A DNA stretch of 64,000 nt from Escherichia coli (lineage in GTDB: Bacteria; Pseudomonadota; Gammaproteobacteria; Enterobacterales; Enterobacteriaceae): the NCBI RefSeq assembly GCF_030013595.1, contig NZ_CP122768.1; one strand, 5' to 3'. The notes under the pieces were generated by a model that saw only the letters and a program-made list of their open reading frames with translations, was not told the DNA's origin and searched no databases. Shown here in pieces: positions 19,670 to 43,758 of this stretch; positions within the stretch are counted from its first letter, which is position 1, and the number at the start of each line of letters is the position of its first letter. Made by a program: the position numbers and the translations under genes.

Positions 19670-19903
19670 ATGAGCCGAAAACACTGGACACACAGAATGC
19701 CGCGAACGGCGGCGAAATGGGCACTGGTAGCGATACTGGTGCCTTTTTTATTGGTGGGGTGCGTTAGCCTGGATAAGGCGCGTCAGCTTTTCGATACCGC
19801 GTCTCAGGCCTGCCAGATTATTGATGGCGTTCGGCGGTGTTCGCAGAACTGCTCACCAACATTACAGCAGCCCTTCAGCCGAGGGGCTGCAATAATGCTT
19901 TAG
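19670..19903 (+). CDS. Small lipoprotein (possible o-spanin-like)
   Basis: Lipobox LLVGC after a signal sequence; Cys/Pro-containing short periplasmic domain. Confidence 0.4.
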   Translation: MSRKHWTHRMPRTAAKWALVAILVPFLLVGCVSLDKARQLFDTASQACQIIDGVRRCSQNCSPTLQQPFSRGAAIML

Positions 19904-20106
19904 TTGTCTTTCATAAATCCTTTAATGACCCATCCCACAAGCCTGGTGATGCTGTACACCAACAAGGCAATTATCAGAGATACAAGGATATCAAACAGTG
20001 AGAATCCTTGCGTATCCGTTGTTGAAAATAAAAGACTAAAGATGAACACCAGAATGGCCAACAGAATACCTACCCGGTGAAAGCCTTTAGAAATCATGTT
20101 TTTCAT
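19900..20106 (-). CDS. Small two-TM membrane protein on the opposite strand
   Basis: 68-aa ORF with GGAGG ribosome-binding site 5 nt upstream; lies between lysis and packaging modules. Confidence 0.5.
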   Translation of the reverse strand: MKNMISKGFHRVGILLAILVFIFSLLFSTTDTQGFSLFDILVSLIIALLVYSITRLVGWVIKGFMKDN

Positions 20107-20167: not shown

Positions 20168-20518
20168 ATGCCATCACGAATCCCACGTGCCTGCCGTAAG
20201 CGTGGATGCGCAGGTACAACCACAGACAGTTCTGGTTACTGCGATAAACATCGTGGTGAAGGATGGGCACAGCATCAGCGCGGACTGAGCCGCCACCAGC
20301 GTGGATATGGCTCGAAATGGGATGCCATACGGGTGCGCATACTGAAGCGTGATAATCATCTGTGTCAGAACTGCCTGCGCAATGGGATAGCCGTTGAAGC
20401 CAGAACTGTGGACCACATCATTCCGAAAGCTCATGGTGGCACGGATGCAGACAGCAACCTGCAGAGTCTGTGCTGGCCCTGCCATAAAGCAAAAACTGCG
20501 CGCGAACGAATCAGGTGA
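20168..20518 (+). CDS. HNH endonuclease
   Basis: Cys-rich zinc-binding and HNH motifs (CQNC .. VDHIIPKAHGGTDADSNLQSLCWPCH). Confidence 0.8.
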   Translation: MPSRIPRACRKRGCAGTTTDSSGYCDKHRGEGWAQHQRGLSRHQRGYGSKWDAIRVRILKRDNHLCQNCLRNGIAVEARTVDHIIPKAHGGTDADSNLQSLCWPCHKAKTARERIR

Positions 20519-20663
20519 TAATTATTCTCACTTGTGGGGAGGGGCGGGTCAAATCTCTGCAACCCTGGCTGCTCAGTACCGCCGCCTGACCTTTCCTCGC
20601 ATCGCCGCAGGTTCGAAAACTTTTTTTGGAATGTGATTAAATGATTGATAGGTAAAACCGATT

Positions 20664-21146
20664 ATGTCTGGACCCCCGAAAACCCCGCCACGCCTGCATT
20701 TGATACGAGGTAACCCCTCAAAGCGGCCAGTTAAAGACCCCAAAAAAACCGCTAAAAAGGATGAAAAAGGTCTCCCTAAAATTCCGCAACACTTAGGGGC
20801 GCAGGGGAAGTACTGGTTCAGGCGAATGGCGGAAGAGCTGAATGCGGAAGGGATCATTTCTCAGCTTGATGCGCGTGCACTCGAGTTACTGGTGGAAGCC
20901 TACACCGAATACCGGCATCACTGCGAAACACTCGATGTTGAGGGGTATACCTACCGCACGGAAACGCAGAACGGTGATGTGCTGATTAAGGCACACCCGG
21001 CTGCTGCGATGAAAGCGGATGCCTGGAAGCGGATCCGGGCGATGCTTGCAGAGTTTGGTATGTCACCGGCAAGCCGGGCGAAAGTAAATACCGCCGGACC
21101 GGATGATGTTGATCCGCTGGCGGAACTTTTAAAAGCGAGAGACTGA
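20664..21146 (+). CDS. Terminase small subunit
   Basis: 160-aa protein immediately upstream of and overlapping the large terminase. Confidence 0.7.
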   Translation: MSGPPKTPPRLHLIRGNPSKRPVKDPKKTAKKDEKGLPKIPQHLGAQGKYWFRRMAEELNAEGIISQLDARALELLVEAYTEYRHHCETLDVEGYTYRTETQNGDVLIKAHPAAAMKADAWKRIRAMLAEFGMSPASRAKVNTAGPDDVDPLAELLKARD

Positions 21147-22903
21147 TGGCAAAAGTGGCTGATGGGATCCGCTACGCCGAACGTGTTGTTGCAGGAGAAA
21201 TTGTCGCTGGCGAATTTGTCCGTCTGGCCTGCCAGCGTTTTCTTGATGATCTGAAGTACGGCGAAGAGCGGGGGATTTATTTCAGTGAACCCCGTGCGCA
21301 GCACATCCTGAATTTCTACAAATTTGTGCCCCATGTAAAAGGGGCGCTGGCAGGCCAGCCCATTGAACTGATGGACTGGCATGTATTTATCCTCATTAAT
21401 ATTTTTGGTTTTGTCATTCCGCTGGTCAATGAAGAGACCGGGGAAGTTGTCATGCGCAGCGATGGCAGCGGACGTCCGGTGATGGTGCGCCGGTTCCGGA
21501 CGGCGTACAACGAAGTCGCCCGTAAAAACGCAAAATCAACCCTGTCATCGGGTATCGGCCTGTATATGACGGGGGCAGATGGTGAAGGCGGTGCTGAGGT
21601 GTATTCAGCCGCAACCACGCGTGACCAGGCCAGAATTGTGTTTGAAGACGCCAAAAATATGGTCAGGAAAGCCCGGTCGACACTCGGGCGGTTGTTTGAT
21701 TTCAACAAGCTGGCGATTTACCAGGAGCAGAGCGCATCAAAATTTGAACCGCTTTCCTCGGATGCAAACAACCTGGACGGTCTGAACATCCACTGCGCCA
21801 TTATTGATGAGCTGCATGCACATAAAACCCGCGACGTGTGGGACGTTCTGGAAACGGCAACCGGTGCCCGTCTGCAGTCCCTGTTATTTGGTATCACCAC
21901 GGCGGGCTTTAACAAGGAAGGGATTTGTTACGAGCAACGCGATTACGCCATCAAGGTATTGCGTGGCTATAACAGCGACGTGGAGGGCGCGGTAAAAGAC
22001 GACTCCTACTTTGCGATTATTTACACCCTCGATGAGGGAGATGATCCGTTTGATGAAACGGTCTGGCAGAAAGCGAATCCCGGACTGGGCATCTGTAAAC
22101 GCTGGGATGATCTGCGTCGTCTGGCGAAAAAAGCGAAAGAACAGGTCTCTGCGCGGGTGAATTTTTTTACCAAACACATGAATGTGTGGGTAACAGCAGA
22201 GTCTGCCTGGATGGACATGATTAAGTGGGAGAAGTGCGAATACATTGCCCCACGACATGAGCTGAAAACGTATCCCATGTGGGTCGGCGTTGACCTTGCT
22301 CATAAGATTGATATCTGTGCGGCGGCAAAACTCTGGCGAACGGATAACGGGCATGTTCATGCCGATTTTAAATTCTGGCTTCCGGAAGGACGGCTGGAAC
22401 GATGCTCGCGGCAGCAGGCAGAACTTTACCGGAAGTGGGCGGAGATGGATAAGCTCATCCTGACGGATGGTGATGTTATCGATCATGCTCAGATAAAAAG
22501 TGACTTACTGGAATGGATTGGCGGTGAAAACCTCAGGGAACTGGGATTTGACCCGTGGAGTGCAATGCAGTTCAGTCTGGCTCTGGCTGAAGAAGGGATA
22601 TCGCTGGTGGAAGTTCCGCAGACGGTCCGCAATCTGTCAGAGGCCATGAAGGAAACGGAATCACTGGTCTATGCCGGGCGTTTCCATCACAGCAATCACC
22701 CGGTCATGAACTGGATGATGTCTAACGTTACGGTAAAACCGGACAAAAACGACAATATCTTCCCGAACAAATCCACGCCTGAAGCCAAAATCGACGGCCC
22801 TGTTGCGATGTTTACAGCAATGAGCCGGATGCTGGTCAATGGCGGTGAACCGGAGCCGGATCTGTCTGAACACCTGATTAGTGTTGGTATCCGCTCGCTT
22901 TAA
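21146..22903 (+). CDS. Terminase large subunit
   Basis: 585-aa protein with ATPase and nuclease regions. Confidence 0.9.
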
Positions 22904-22914
22904 CCGAGGGCATT

Positions 22915-23097
22915 ATGTTTCTGATAATTCTCACGCCACTGGTGGGCGTGCTGGGGGCGCTTTTGCTGTCGTATGGCACATGGATGATTTATCCCCCGGC
23001 AGGTTTTGTTGTTGCCGGGGCGCTGTGTCTGTGCTGGTCGTGGCTGGTTGCGCGTTATCTCGATCGCGGTCACCGGGTCGCCTCCGGAGGTGAGTAA
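22915..23097 (+). CDS. Small hydrophobic protein between terminase and portal
   Basis: 60-aa ORF with two predicted TM segments; exactly fills the intergenic gap. Confidence 0.3.
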
Positions 23098-24338
23098 TGT
23101 TTTTCCAGGGGCTTTTTCAACGCAAAAATAACACCCCCGTCACAACGCCCGGGATGCTTGCGGAAGAACTTGGATTGTCATACGACACCTATACCGGAAA
23201 GCGGATCAGCAGCCAGCGGGCCATGCGGCTGACGGCGGTCTATTCCTGCGTCAGGGTGCTGGCGGAGTCTGTTGGTATGCTGCCCTGCAGCCTCTACAAA
23301 ATCACCGGTACCCTTAAAACACGGGCGGTAGATGAACGACTGCATAAGCTGGTTTCGGCAAAACCTAATGGCTACATGACGCCGCAGGAATTCTGGGAGC
23401 TGGTCATTGTCTGCCTGTGTCTGCGGGGTAATTTTTACGCCTACAAGGTAAAGGCACTGGGGGAAGTGGTGGAGCTTCTTCCGATAGATCCGGGCTGTGT
23501 GGAACCGAAGCTGAACAGCCAGTGGCAGCCGGTTTATCAGGTGACGTTTCCGGATGGTTCCGTGGATGTGCTGACCCAGAATGAAATCTGGCATGTGCGC
23601 ACTCTGACGCTGGATGGACTTGTCGGGCTGAATCCCATTGCGTATGCGCGTGAGGCCATTTCACTGGCAGCGGCAACTGAGGAGCACGGCGCCAGGTTGT
23701 TTGGTAACGGCGCTGTGACATCCGGTGTGTTGCGTACGGATCAACAACTTTCTGATCAGGCTTATGCGCGTATCAAAAAGGACTTTGAGGAACGGCATGT
23801 CGGGCTGGGAAATTCTCATCGTCCGATGATTCTGGAAATGGGGCTGGACTGGAAAACGGTGGCACTGAATGCCGAGGACAGCCAGTTCCTGGAAACCCGC
23901 AAGTTTCAGCTGGAAGAAATCTGTCGCCTGTTCCGCGTACCGCTGCATATGGTGCAGAACACCGATCGCGCCACCTTCAACAATATTGAAGAGCTGGGGC
24001 TTGGTTTCATTAACTATTCCCTTGTGCCGTATCTGACCCGTATTGAACAGCGGATCAATACAGGGCTGGTCAGGGAGAGCAAACAGGGGAGGTTTTACGC
24101 CAAATTTAATGCCGGAGCATTGTTGCGTGGCGACATGAAATCCCGCTTTGAAGCGTATGCCACGGGGATCAACTGGGGGATTTATTCCCCTAATGACTGC
24201 CGTGATCTGGAGGATATGAATCCCCGACCGGGCGGTGATGTGTATCTGACACCGATGAACATGACCACCAGTCCCTCTGCTGGCGATGACAACGGTAAGA
24301 AAAAGGAGAGTGGAGATGCAGACAAAACAGCGTCTTGA
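23097..24338 (+). CDS. Portal protein (HK97 family)
   Basis: 413-aa protein in the conserved position after terminase. Confidence 0.85.
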   Translation: MFFQGLFQRKNNTPVTTPGMLAEELGLSYDTYTGKRISSQRAMRLTAVYSCVRVLAESVGMLPCSLYKITGTLKTRAVDERLHKLVSAKPNGYMTPQEFWELVIVCLCLRGNFYAYKVKALGEVVELLPIDPGCVEPKLNSQWQPVYQVTFPDGSVDVLTQNEIWHVRTLTLDGLVGLNPIAYAREAISLAAATEEHGARLFGNGAVTSGVLRTDQQLSDQAYARIKKDFEERHVGLGNSHRPMILEMGLDWKTVALNAEDSQFLETRKFQLEEICRLFRVPLHMVQNTDRATFNNIEELGLGFINYSLVPYLTRIEQRINTGLVRESKQGRFYAKFNAGALLRGDMKSRFEAYATGINWGIYSPNDCRDLEDMNPRPGGDVYLTPMNMTTSPSAGDDNGKKKESGDADKTAS

Positions 24339-24966
24339 TATACCGCTGAACCTGAAATCCGTCAGTGATTCCGGGGAATTTGAAGGTTACGGTTCTGTTT
24401 TTGGTGTTAAGGACAGCCACGATGATGTGGTGGTCCCCGGTGCCTTTACCACAACACTCCAGAAATGGAGCGAAAAAAAGGCGCTGCCTGCGTTGCTCTG
24501 GCAGCACCGCATGGATGAGCCCATCGGTGTGTACACCGAAATGAAAGAAGATGATGTCGGGCTTTATGTCAGGGGGCGATTACTCGTTGATGATGATCCC
24601 CTGGCAAAACGTGCACATGCCCATATGAAGGCCGGTTCTTTAACCGGTCTTTCTATTGGCTACATCCTGAAAGACTGGGAGTACGACCGTGAAAAAGGGG
24701 TATTCCTGCTGAAAGAGATCGACCTGTGGGAGGTCAGTCTGGTGACGTTTCCTTCCAATGATGAGGCACGCATCAGCGATGTGAAAAATGCGCTGGCGCG
24801 TGGGGAGATCCCTGATCAGAAAATCATTGAGCGGGTCCTGCGCGATGTTGGACTCTCGCGAACCCAGGCCAAAGCATTCATGGCCGGGGGATATGGCGCT
24901 TTATCCCTGCGTGATGCTGAGGATGTGGATGCCGCACTGAATGCACTGAAAAATCTTAAATTTTAA
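24316..24966 (+). CDS. Prohead maturation protease (HK97-type, S78)
   Basis: AAGGAG ribosome-binding site; about 216 aa between portal and capsid. Confidence 0.8.
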   Translation: MQTKQRLDIPLNLKSVSDSGEFEGYGSVFGVKDSHDDVVVPGAFTTTLQKWSEKKALPALLWQHRMDEPIGVYTEMKEDDVGLYVRGRLLVDDDPLAKRAHAHMKAGSLTGLSIGYILKDWEYDREKGVFLLKEIDLWEVSLVTFPSNDEARISDVKNALARGEIPDQKIIERVLRDVGLSRTQAKAFMAGGYGALSLRDAEDVDAALNALKNLKF

Positions 24967-24980
24967 CCAGGAGAAAAATA

Positions 24981-26204
24981 ATGGCTGACATTAAAGATGT
25001 GGAGCAGGTCGCGCAGGAGCTGCAGCAGAAGTTTGACGATTTTAAGGCAAAAAACGACAAGCGCATTGACGCGATCGAACAGGAAAAAAGCAAGCTGGCC
25101 GAACAGGTGGAAAGCCTGAACGGGCAAATCAGCGAGCTGGAGAACCTGAAAAGCGACCTGGAAAAAGAGCTGGCAGACATCAAGCGTCCGGCAGGCGGCA
25201 CGCAAAATAAAGTTGCCGGTGAACACAAAGAAGCGTTTATCGGATTTATGCGCAAGGGGCGTGAAGACGGTCTGCGTGAACTTGAACGTAAGGCGCTTCA
25301 GGTAGGTAATGATGAAGATGGTGGTTATGCCATTCCGGAAGAACTGGATCGTACCATCCTGACGCTGCTGAAAGATGAGGTGGTGATGCGCCAGGAAGCC
25401 ACTGTGATCACCCTCGGTGGCTCGGATTATAAAAAACTGGTGAATCTGGGCGGCACTAAGTCCGGATGGGTGGGGGAAACGGATACGCGTCCGGAAACCG
25501 CCACCTCAAAACTGGGACTGATTGAACCCTTTATGGGGGAAATCTACGGCAACCCGCAGGCTACCCAGAAAATGCTCGATGATGCTTTCTTCAATGTGGA
25601 AGACTGGATCAACAGTGAACTGGCGCTGGAATTTGCCGAACAGGAAGAAATTGCCTTTACCAGTGGCGACGGCAGCAAAAAACCAAAAGGTTTTCTGGCT
25701 TATGAGTCCACCGATGAAGATGACAAGACCCGTGCGTTTGGCAAACTTCAGCACATTGCTTCCGGCGCGGCTTCTGGCGTGACCGCTGATGCGATCATTA
25801 AACTGATTTACACCCTGCGCAAGGCGCACCGCAGCGGCGCGAAGTTCATGATGAACAACAGCAGCCTGTTTGCCATTCGCCTGCTGAAGGATAACGACGG
25901 AAATTATCTGTGGCGTCCGGGTATTGAGCTGGGTCAGCCTTCTTCTCTGGCAGGGTATGGCATCGTTGAGAATGAGCAGATGCCGGATATTGCTGCCGAT
26001 GCAAAAGCTATTGCGTTTGGTAACTTCAAACGCGGCTATACCATTGTTGATCGCATCGGTACCCGTATCCTGCGTGACCCGTACACCAACAAACCGTTTG
26101 TGGGCTTTTATACCACCAAGCGAACCGGCGGTATGCTGGTGGATTCTCAGGCGATTAAGCTGATGAAAATTGGGGCCGCAACCCGCCAGAAAGCCGCGGC
26201 GTAA
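24981..26204 (+). CDS. Major capsid protein (HK97 fold)
   Basis: 407 aa with coiled-coil N-terminal delta domain (KLAEQVESLNGQISELENLKSDLEKELADIK) then capsid core. Confidence 0.85.
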   Translation: MADIKDVEQVAQELQQKFDDFKAKNDKRIDAIEQEKSKLAEQVESLNGQISELENLKSDLEKELADIKRPAGGTQNKVAGEHKEAFIGFMRKGREDGLRELERKALQVGNDEDGGYAIPEELDRTILTLLKDEVVMRQEATVITLGGSDYKKLVNLGGTKSGWVGETDTRPETATSKLGLIEPFMGEIYGNPQATQKMLDDAFFNVEDWINSELALEFAEQEEIAFTSGDGSKKPKGFLAYESTDEDDKTRAFGKLQHIASGAASGVTADAIIKLIYTLRKAHRSGAKFMMNNSSLFAIRLLKDNDGNYLWRPGIELGQPSSLAGYGIVENEQMPDIAADAKAIAFGNFKRGYTIVDRIGTRILRDPYTNKPFVGFYTTKRTGGMLVDSQAIKLMKIGAATRQKAAA

Positions 26205-43395: not shown

Positions 43396-43422
43396 TGGTG
43401 GAGCTGGCGGGAGTTGAACCCG
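43396..43422. repeat. att core, right copy (within the ssrA 3' end)
   Basis: Identical 27-mer to 292..318. Confidence 0.8.
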
Positions 43423-43758
43423 CGTCCGAAATTCCTACGTCCTCGGTACTACATGCTTAGTCAGTCTTTACATTCGCTTGCCAGCTGCGGACGGACACGC
43501 CACTAACAAACTAGCCTGATTAAGTTTTAACGCTTCAACCCCAGGCAGGGCTTCCACGCGATCTCTTTTGGGTTTGACCTCTCTTGATCCCCGTCCTAAG
43601 AGCGGAGGCTAGGGAGAGAGGGCTCTAAGCAGGTTATTAAGCTGCTAAAGCGTAGTTTTCGTCGTTTGCGACTATTTTTTGCGGCTTTTTACGAGGCCAA
43701 CCGCCCCTCGGCATGCACCTTGGGTTTCGCAAATCCCGTCGAATCCAGAATCAGCCCC
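43396..43758 (-). ncRNA. ssrA: tmRNA (SsrA), 363 nt
   Basis: Reverse complement begins ggggctgattctggattcgacgggatttgcg.. and ends ..gggttcaactcccgccagctccacca; contains the tag-reading frame (..gcaaacgacgaaaactacgctttagcagcttaa). Confidence 0.95.

Follow-up and report, generated by a model that had tools for sequence, protein, structure and literature searches.

Which part of this DNA would be cut when the prophage that it carries is packaged, and which proteins and DNA elements would take part in the cutting? In this work we are presenting an analysis of a 64-kb stretch of Escherichia coli DNA (hereafter the window), in which a gene of an HNH endonuclease stands just upstream of the genes of the small (TerS) and large (TerL) terminase subunits. 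Initial annotation had proposed that this is the HK97-type arrangement, in which the HNH protein assists cleavage at cos, and that the gap between the HNH and TerS genes is the likely cos site. Our results make it highly probable that we are dealing with the module by which an HK97-type cos phage packages its DNA, located in the middle of a prophage, with HNH-aided nicks at 20589|20590 and 20579|20580 and with two sub-sites, one for TerS and one that we call the G-box.

Results

The prophage and its packaging region

The window contains a complete prophage of about 43 kb (292-43422), integrated in the 3' end of ssrA. Its completeness is evident from the 27-bp direct repeat TGGTGGAGCTGGCGGGAGTTGAACCCG present at both ends (292-318 and 43396-43422) together with an integrase gene. 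The second copy of the repeat is the 3' end of ssrA itself (tmRNA gene at 43396-43758, minus strand), and the host DNA flanking the prophage is 98.3% identical to E. coli. The features of the prophage that are needed below are as follows.

387-1649, minus strand: integrase gene, at the prophage end far from ssrA
20168-20518, plus strand: packaging-associated HNH endonuclease, 116 aa (PF01844, E=4e-16; PHROG 144, 1e-41)
20519-20663, no strand: intergenic cos region, 145 bp, which aligns with the HNH-TerS gaps of phi467, phiP27, mEp235, Pm34, SfV and ST64B and with the joined HK97 ends
20664-21146, plus strand: terminase small subunit, P27 family, 160 aa (PF05119, 1.6e-25; PHROG 83, 4e-55; TIGR01558)
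21146-22903, plus strand: terminase large subunit, HK97 family, 585 aa (PF03354, 2e-27; PF20441, 3.5e-51; PHROG 9, 1e-189)
23097-24338, plus strand: HK97-type portal (PF04860, 9e-107)
24286-24966, plus strand: S78 prohead protease (PF04586, 4e-33)
24981-26204, plus strand: HK97-fold major capsid protein (PF05065, 9e-81)

The open reading frames 20168-20518 and 20664-21146 lie on the same strand and are separated by 145 bp, so the HNH gene does stand just upstream of the TerS gene, as had been noticed, and the portal, protease and capsid genes located downstream of the terminase genes (23097-26204) are all of the HK97 type. Gene identities and synteny are in this case directly observed, as are the homology of the cut region to recorded phage ends and the conservation of the sub-sites described below. 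Of 5426 complete E. coli genomes, 1018 carry the annotated block of HNH gene, gap, TerS and TerL, and so do phages phi467, mEp235 and phiP27; the part of this block from the HNH gene through cos to TerS is 95-96% identical to phi467 and several sequenced E. coli phages.

Several neighbouring features were recorded along the way. An ORF of 68 aa (19900-20106, minus strand), directly upstream of the HNH gene and with two hydrophobic stretches, had no match in Pfam or PHROG and may encode a small membrane protein of the moron type; the region similar to phi467 starts only past it, at about 20158. Between the TerL and portal genes lies a hydrophobic ORF of 60 aa (22915-23097, plus strand), and the ORF at the same position is labelled 'integral membrane protein' in phiP27 (L37), ST64B (sb3) and SfII. 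Upstream of the lysis cassette there are genes of an N6/N4 DNA methyltransferase (PF01555; 16136-17182, plus strand) and of tRNA-Gly(UCC) (17443-17517, plus strand). In phi467 and phiP27 the stx2e genes are located upstream of the lysis cassette; the ORFs of the window that were examined included no stx gene.

The cos site and its predicted cohesive ends

Initial annotation suggested that the gap be aligned with HK97-like cos sequences. The joined ends of HK97 do align with it, and so do two other anchors taken from relatives, which together bear out the identification of the gap as cos; with the cos measured in SfI they make four independent anchors that agree. In the GenBank record of phiP27 a 10-bp 'cos-site' feature (CGCCCGCCCC), located 61 bp past the HNH stop codon, aligns to 20580-20589. 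The HK97 record ends with ...CGCCGCCAAA, at the same 21-nt distance from TCAAATCT as in the window: it closes as ...GGGGGGGGATCAAATCT-N21-ACCGCCGCCAAA and restarts as GTTTGAATTT, the window counterpart being GGGGCGGGTCAAATCT-N21-ACCGCCGCCTGA|CCTTT, and this identical spacing places the HK97 junction at 20589|20590. The numbering of the HK97 TerS site (+15 to +29, with G at 21 and then the A-tract) fits position 1 of the record as +1. In the linear record of Proteus phage Pm34, whose joined ends read ...CCTAGGAC|CGCCCCCTTACC..., the junction ...GGAC|CGCCCCCTTA aligns to 20579|20580; the exact coincidence with the predicted nick suggests that these record ends are the physical ones.

The HK97 overhang is a 3' overhang of 10 nt (PMC11331095; PMC9410871, legend to Figure 1). 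Since the HK97 and Pm34 anchors are exactly 10 nt apart, equal to this length, we predict nicks at 20589|20590 in the top strand and at 20579|20580 in the bottom strand, leaving the following 3' ends.

20580-20589, plus strand: predicted 10-nt 3' cohesive end CGCCGCCTGA, from alignment to recorded phage ends

One of the two sources is not uniform on this point: PMC9410871 gives 10 nt in the Figure 1 legend and '12-nt 3' overhangs' in its Discussion, and PMC11331095 gives 10 nt. In phage SfI, which belongs to the same HNH lineage, cos was measured in virion DNA as a 10-nt gap TGCCCGCCCC (PMC3636060). Alignment to the ends of such relatives suggests that the phage of the window, too, has fixed ends with 3' overhangs of about 10 nt. 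The predicted cohesive end differs from that of HK97 at three of ten positions and from that of phiP27 at five or more.

It is rather unlikely that cos lies in the gap with nicks or an overhang differing from those predicted, for example with a 9-nt overhang or a shift by a few bases. Such a shift is conceivable, because TerL is only 38% identical to that of phiP27 and distant from that of HK97 (E=4e-35), and the overhang sequences do vary among relatives (CGCCGCCTGA, CGCCCGCCCC, TGCCCGCCCC, CGCCGCCAAA and CGCCCCCTTA); the overhang of Pseudomonas phage D3 is 9 nt long. On the other hand, Pm34, the closest relative with a linear record (TerL 80% identical), ends exactly at the predicted bottom-strand nick, and the distance from the G-box to the right end is alike in HK97, D3, Dragolir and the window (48-49 nt).

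The records of phi467 and mEp235 and those of the 96-99% identical relatives in the phage collection are not cut at cos. Two records were rejected as end anchors: that of mEp235, which is linearised at the TerS ATG, and that of Providencia phage PSTRCR_117lys, in which about 38 bp around the cut site are missing. Compared with Pm34, the latter record (MW358929, given as 'circular'; end of L008 and start of L007) lacks the cut site together with a portion of the TerS site, reading ...CTCTCGCC|GGTTAGAAAAC..., which is probably an assembly artefact at physical ends. A promoter and terminator scan of the gap gave one weak antisense promoter-like match only, no more than in shuffled sequences, and a repeat search yielded just one direct repeat of 7 nt and one weak inverted repeat of 11 nt, both likely due to chance.

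The candidate TerS site downstream of the cut

Past the cut the gap contains a G/C block followed by A/T tracts.

20603-20627, plus strand: candidate small-terminase recognition site CGCCGCAGGTTCGAAAACTTTTTTT, at +14 to +38 from the top-strand nick

This sequence is conserved only in phages having this type of TerS, among them the phage of the window, phi467, mEp235, Pm34 and Providencia, Klebsiella and Morganella phages, and phages with the SfV/P27 type of TerS have ACCCGCGAAAAATGAAAT in its place. In phi467, mEp235 and Pm34 the box of the site reads CCGCAGGTT(C/A)GAAAAC, as in the window. The TerS site of HK97 was mapped to +15 to +29 (PMC11331095), and within it a G:C pair and the adjacent 9-bp A-tract are essential. 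Because 20603-20627 parallels this site in both position and composition, we take it as the likely TerS recognition site.

The upstream G-box

On the other side of the cut we noticed a second conserved element.

20536-20558, plus strand: G-box GGGGAGGGGCGGGTCAAATCTCT, proposed upstream cos sub-site, with the exact 15-mer core GGGGCGGGTCAAATC at 20541-20555

The 15-mer occurs once in the window, and its start is 49 nt before the predicted right end. An exact-match scan found it in at least 120 IMG/VR contigs (loci L015-L134, L215 and L217). In about 100 of the 122 occurrences listed, an HNH gene on the same strand ends 25-100 nt upstream, many of these HNH proteins being only 30-45% identical to that of the window, and TerS and TerL genes follow downstream where they are recognisable; about 10 listed occurrences fall in unrelated coding DNA, as chance predicts. 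The viral contigs that share the box include at least 50 divergent ones, and its place is nearly always right behind an HNH gene and ahead of a cos-like cut site. When the listed loci were clustered into 64 groups with less than 70% flank identity to one another, two features still recurred across the groups: TCT(G/A) immediately behind the box, and at +37 to +45 the motif AC(C/G)G(C/G)CG. In two contigs of IMG/VR (L047, with boxes at 469 and 3571; L057, with boxes at 3492 and 6363) the set of G-box, cos and TerS is present twice, at a distance of about 3 kb and with an HNH gene in between, perhaps because part of the region was duplicated in tandem or because another cos-bearing element lies next to it.

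A second sample was chosen by HNH similarity, not by the box, and comprised 78 informative loci. In about 72 of them a variant of the box can be recognised at the fixed distance (28 exact, 41 with one to three mismatches and 3 with four); among the variants are GGGGGGGATCAAATC of HK97 and AGGGCGGGTCAAAAG of mEp235, and the consensus is G7-9, then T/A-CAAA-T/A-C. As only 28 of the 78 match exactly, the exactness of the 15-mer match is partly an ascertainment effect, and the element itself is real. Where the HNH gene closes a record, the distance from the start of the box to the right end can be read off directly: it is 49 nt in HK97 (two mismatches), 48 nt in Pseudomonas phage D3 (GGGGCGGGTCAAAAC, one mismatch) and 48 nt in Paenibacillus phage Dragolir (GGGGAGGTTCAAAAA, four mismatches). 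The ends of the HK97 and D3 records are, we presume, the experimentally determined ones.

We considered whether the G-box and the cut-site region act as a folded single strand, either a cruciform or hairpin or an RNA element, and not as duplex protein sites. In favour of pairing, the box GGGGCGG and the cut-site CCGCC(C)CC are complementary in many lineages, as appears in many single-sequence folds, and there are small inverted repeats between box and cut site. Against this, window positions 20530-20600 fold no better than shuffled sequences (DNA z=+1.13), RNAalifold on 57 lineages gave -2.2 kcal/mol with essentially no covariation and no consensus structure, no Rfam family matches the region, and in some lineages the second element is in direct, not inverted, orientation. 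For the pairing of box and cut site in particular covariation is uninformative, because the box sequence was fixed by the search. With the shuffle test, RNAalifold and Rfam all negative and the complementarity not general, structured DNA or RNA at cos was rejected as very unlikely; lacking a fold above shuffles and covariation, the G-box is best read as a duplex protein-recognition site.

The two HK97 packaging papers (PMC9410871, PMC11331095) and a 2024 review (PMC7617512) mention only the downstream TerS site and no upstream box, and when the literature was searched for the box sequence, the papers listed contained nothing but unrelated primers. The G-box is possibly the sole new element of this locus.

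Module exchange inside the overhang

The similarity of the window to phiP27 ends inside the overhang. At the DNA level it runs from the start of the HNH gene (84% identity across the gene and 94% between its last codons and the cut site) up to about 20586 and then stops, with the breakpoint at about 20586-20590, while at the protein level identity is 90% for HNH, 20% for TerS and 38% for TerL. Among the loci selected by HNH (L135-L214) each of five types of box plus spacer is joined to both types of TerS site, and the junction falls at about overhang positions 8-10, as in L088 (7870-7943), which reads GACCGCCCGCC|AACCCTTCTTCGC. HNH, G-box and nick on one side and TerS site, TerS and TerL on the other thus behave as separate, exchangeable modules, the former being found in identical form next to either of two unrelated forms of the latter. 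Judged from these sequences, one HNH lineage evidently serves two terminase lineages.

The HNH endonuclease

The HNH protein has the catalytic His-Asn-His residues and both CxxC pairs. According to the alignment, catalytic D82-H83, N97 and H106 and the zinc ligands C66-x2-C69 and C102-x2-C105 are intact, and D82, H83, N97, H106, C66, C69 and C102 are invariant. It also carries an N-terminal CxxxxC...CxxH zinc ribbon; HNH proteins of this zinc-ribbon type have been described (PMC3592412). The protein is 90% identical to L34 of phiP27, among solved structures the HNH endonuclease 5H0M comes closest to it (E=2.6e-15), and it is homologous to gp74 of HK97 (36% identity over 70 aa, BLASTP E=5e-11), which agrees with the HK97-type gene arrangement proposed initially. 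Gp74 stimulates cos cleavage by TerL in vitro (PMC9410871; PMC11331095); by this homology and by its position the HNH protein of the window would likewise aid cos cleavage.

HNH genes are mobile in phages, caution has been advised on inferring their role from position (PMC12315714), and several GenBank records of close relatives carry the label 'homing endonuclease', which would make this gene a free-standing selfish element, a neighbour of the terminase by accident and without any part in packaging. We find this hardly credible. Instead of sporadic spread without fixed synteny, the order HNH-cos-TerS is fixed in about 1000 E. coli prophages (synteny in 1018 genomes) and in divergent viral contigs, namely at about 100 of the 122 listed G-box occurrences, where many of the HNH proteins are only 30-45% identical to that of the window. 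Moreover, the protein is homologous to gp74, which is needed for cos cleavage in vitro, it is small (116 aa), has no DNA-targeting domain apart from the zinc ribbon, and was never seen interrupting a gene.

A further label was found to be wrong in phage Pm34 (KY420199), where gp2 (L010, 256-606), given as 'holin', is the packaging HNH, 72% identical to that of the window; this phage has an extra ORF of 65 aa (gp1) between the HNH gene and the genome end.

The terminase subunits

TerS belongs to the P27 family by scores far above the cutoffs (TIGR01558, 107.7 bits against 45.6; PF05119, 89.8 bits against 24.7), and no sequence similarity to HK97 gp1 was found. Its structure model is of medium confidence (pLDDT 67), and a Foldseek search with this model gave no significant match. 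The start of TerL overlaps the TerS stop codon (21146). TerL consists of an ATPase (PF03354) and a nuclease (PF20441) domain, its only sequence match in the PDB is HK97 TerL (6Z6D, E=4e-35), and its identity is 99.5% to phi467, 87% to mEp235, 80% to Pm34 and 38% to phiP27. No headful (pac-type) terminase family matched it in Pfam and PHROG profile searches.

A TerL of the headful type would have spoken against a cos site, as had been pointed out at the outset; with TerL in the HK97 family (6Z6D as the sole PDB match, 87% identity to mEp235) and no headful match, that objection fails. Headful packaging, with the gap as merely a regulatory or intergenic spacer, can practically be dismissed: the TerS family alone does not dictate the packaging mode, but HK97 TerL is the sole match among solved structures with pac-type families unmatched, relatives have defined 10-nt cohesive ends, and their linear records end at the homologous base.

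Discussion

Proposed course of packaging

Taken as an HK97-type cos module, the locus would work as follows. After induction the P27-family TerS would recognise the concatemer at the G/C-plus-A/T-tract site 20603-20627, about 14-38 bp past the cut. TerL of the HK97 family, helped by the HNH protein encoded just upstream, would make staggered nicks at 20589|20590 (top strand) and 20579|20580 (bottom strand), which would leave 10-nt 3' cohesive ends CGCCGCCTGA. Packaging would then run rightward via terS, terL and the head and tail genes and stop at the next cos, so that the HNH gene and the G-box would be the last DNA packaged. By analogy with lambda cosQ, the G-box (20536-20558) would be a probable protein-recognition sub-site for cutting or for termination. 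Inferred in this scheme are the exact nicks in this prophage, the assignment of each strand's cut to a nuclease, the TerS site and what the G-box does.

Relation to known systems

With HK97 the module shares the gene order gp74 (HNH)-cos-gp1 (TerS)-gp2 (TerL), a homologous HNH protein, the TerL family, the type of portal, protease and capsid, and an A/T-tract TerS site downstream of the cut; the right-end DNA is alignable, with the G-box variant GGGGGGGATCAAATC, the 21-nt spacing and 7 of 10 overhang bases in common. The differences are that gp1 has no sequence similarity to the P27-family TerS of the window, that gp74 is without the N-terminal zinc ribbon, that the distance from HNH to TerS is 145 bp in the window and 368 bp in HK97, and that the DNA downstream of the cut is unrelated.

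The Stx2e phage phiP27 (L34, cos-site, L35, L36) has in common with the window the HNH protein, the DNA up to the cut, the Pfam/TIGRFAM family of TerS and the alignment at cos, while its overhang is CGCCCGCCCC instead of CGCCGCCTGA and its TerS and TerL are divergent. It is a former member of the Myoviridae (PMC11364771), in contrast to the prophage of the window with its lambda-like tail-fibre module. Phages phi467 and mEp235 (Nochtlivirus, Hendrixvirinae) and Pm34 have TerS and TerL of the same lineage as the window; Hendrixvirinae is the subfamily of both mEp235 and HK97. Shigella phages SfV and SfI and Salmonella phage ST64B carry the same HNH lineage (74-76% identical) as the last gene before cos in their records, as well as the G-box, and a 10-nt cos was measured in SfI, but their TerS and TerL are of the phiP27-like type and the TerS-site box is ACCCGCGAAAAATGAAAT.

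The cos of lambda (cosQ-cosN-cosB) is similar in outline, with one element ahead of the nick site and a TerS-binding element past it, in the same order relative to the packaging direction (PMC7617512); it differs in the unrelated TerL family, 12-nt 5' overhangs, absence of HNH and unrelated sub-site sequences. A cosQ-like function of the G-box is a hypothesis prompted by its position upstream of the nick, in the last DNA to enter the head. Wieczorek et al. (in 2002) reportedly found that alterations of the portal protein suppress cosQ mutations.

Significance

The HNH-cos-terminase module is already known: it is of the HK97 type familiar from textbooks, and the prophage family that carries it is very common. 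Refined here are the cohesive end, predicted to the base, and the anatomy of cos, which is resolved into three parts. The value of the present results lies mainly in annotation: they place the predicted virion genome ends for an E. coli prophage family that includes the Stx2e phages phi467 and phiP27, and they set right two labels of public records, 'homing endonuclease' and 'holin'.

The G-box has a wider bearing. In current models of HK97 packaging the sole defined site is that of TerS, downstream at +15 to +29, while the deeply conserved upstream element, at -49 to -29, falls inside the cos fragment (-312 to +472) on which all in-vitro work has been done. A tentative proposal, which we consider somewhat less probable than its opposite, is that the G-box is a universal, undescribed sub-site of HNH-dependent cos packaging with 3' overhangs, either a counterpart of cosQ or a docking site of HNH and TerL for the bottom-strand cut, and that the HNH/G-box and TerS/TerL units reassort freely with the breakpoint inside the overhang. 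Such a sub-site may span phages of Enterobacteria, Pseudomonas and Paenibacillus, and the box bears on two questions of their biology, namely how the HNH nuclease is positioned and what signals the termination of packaging.
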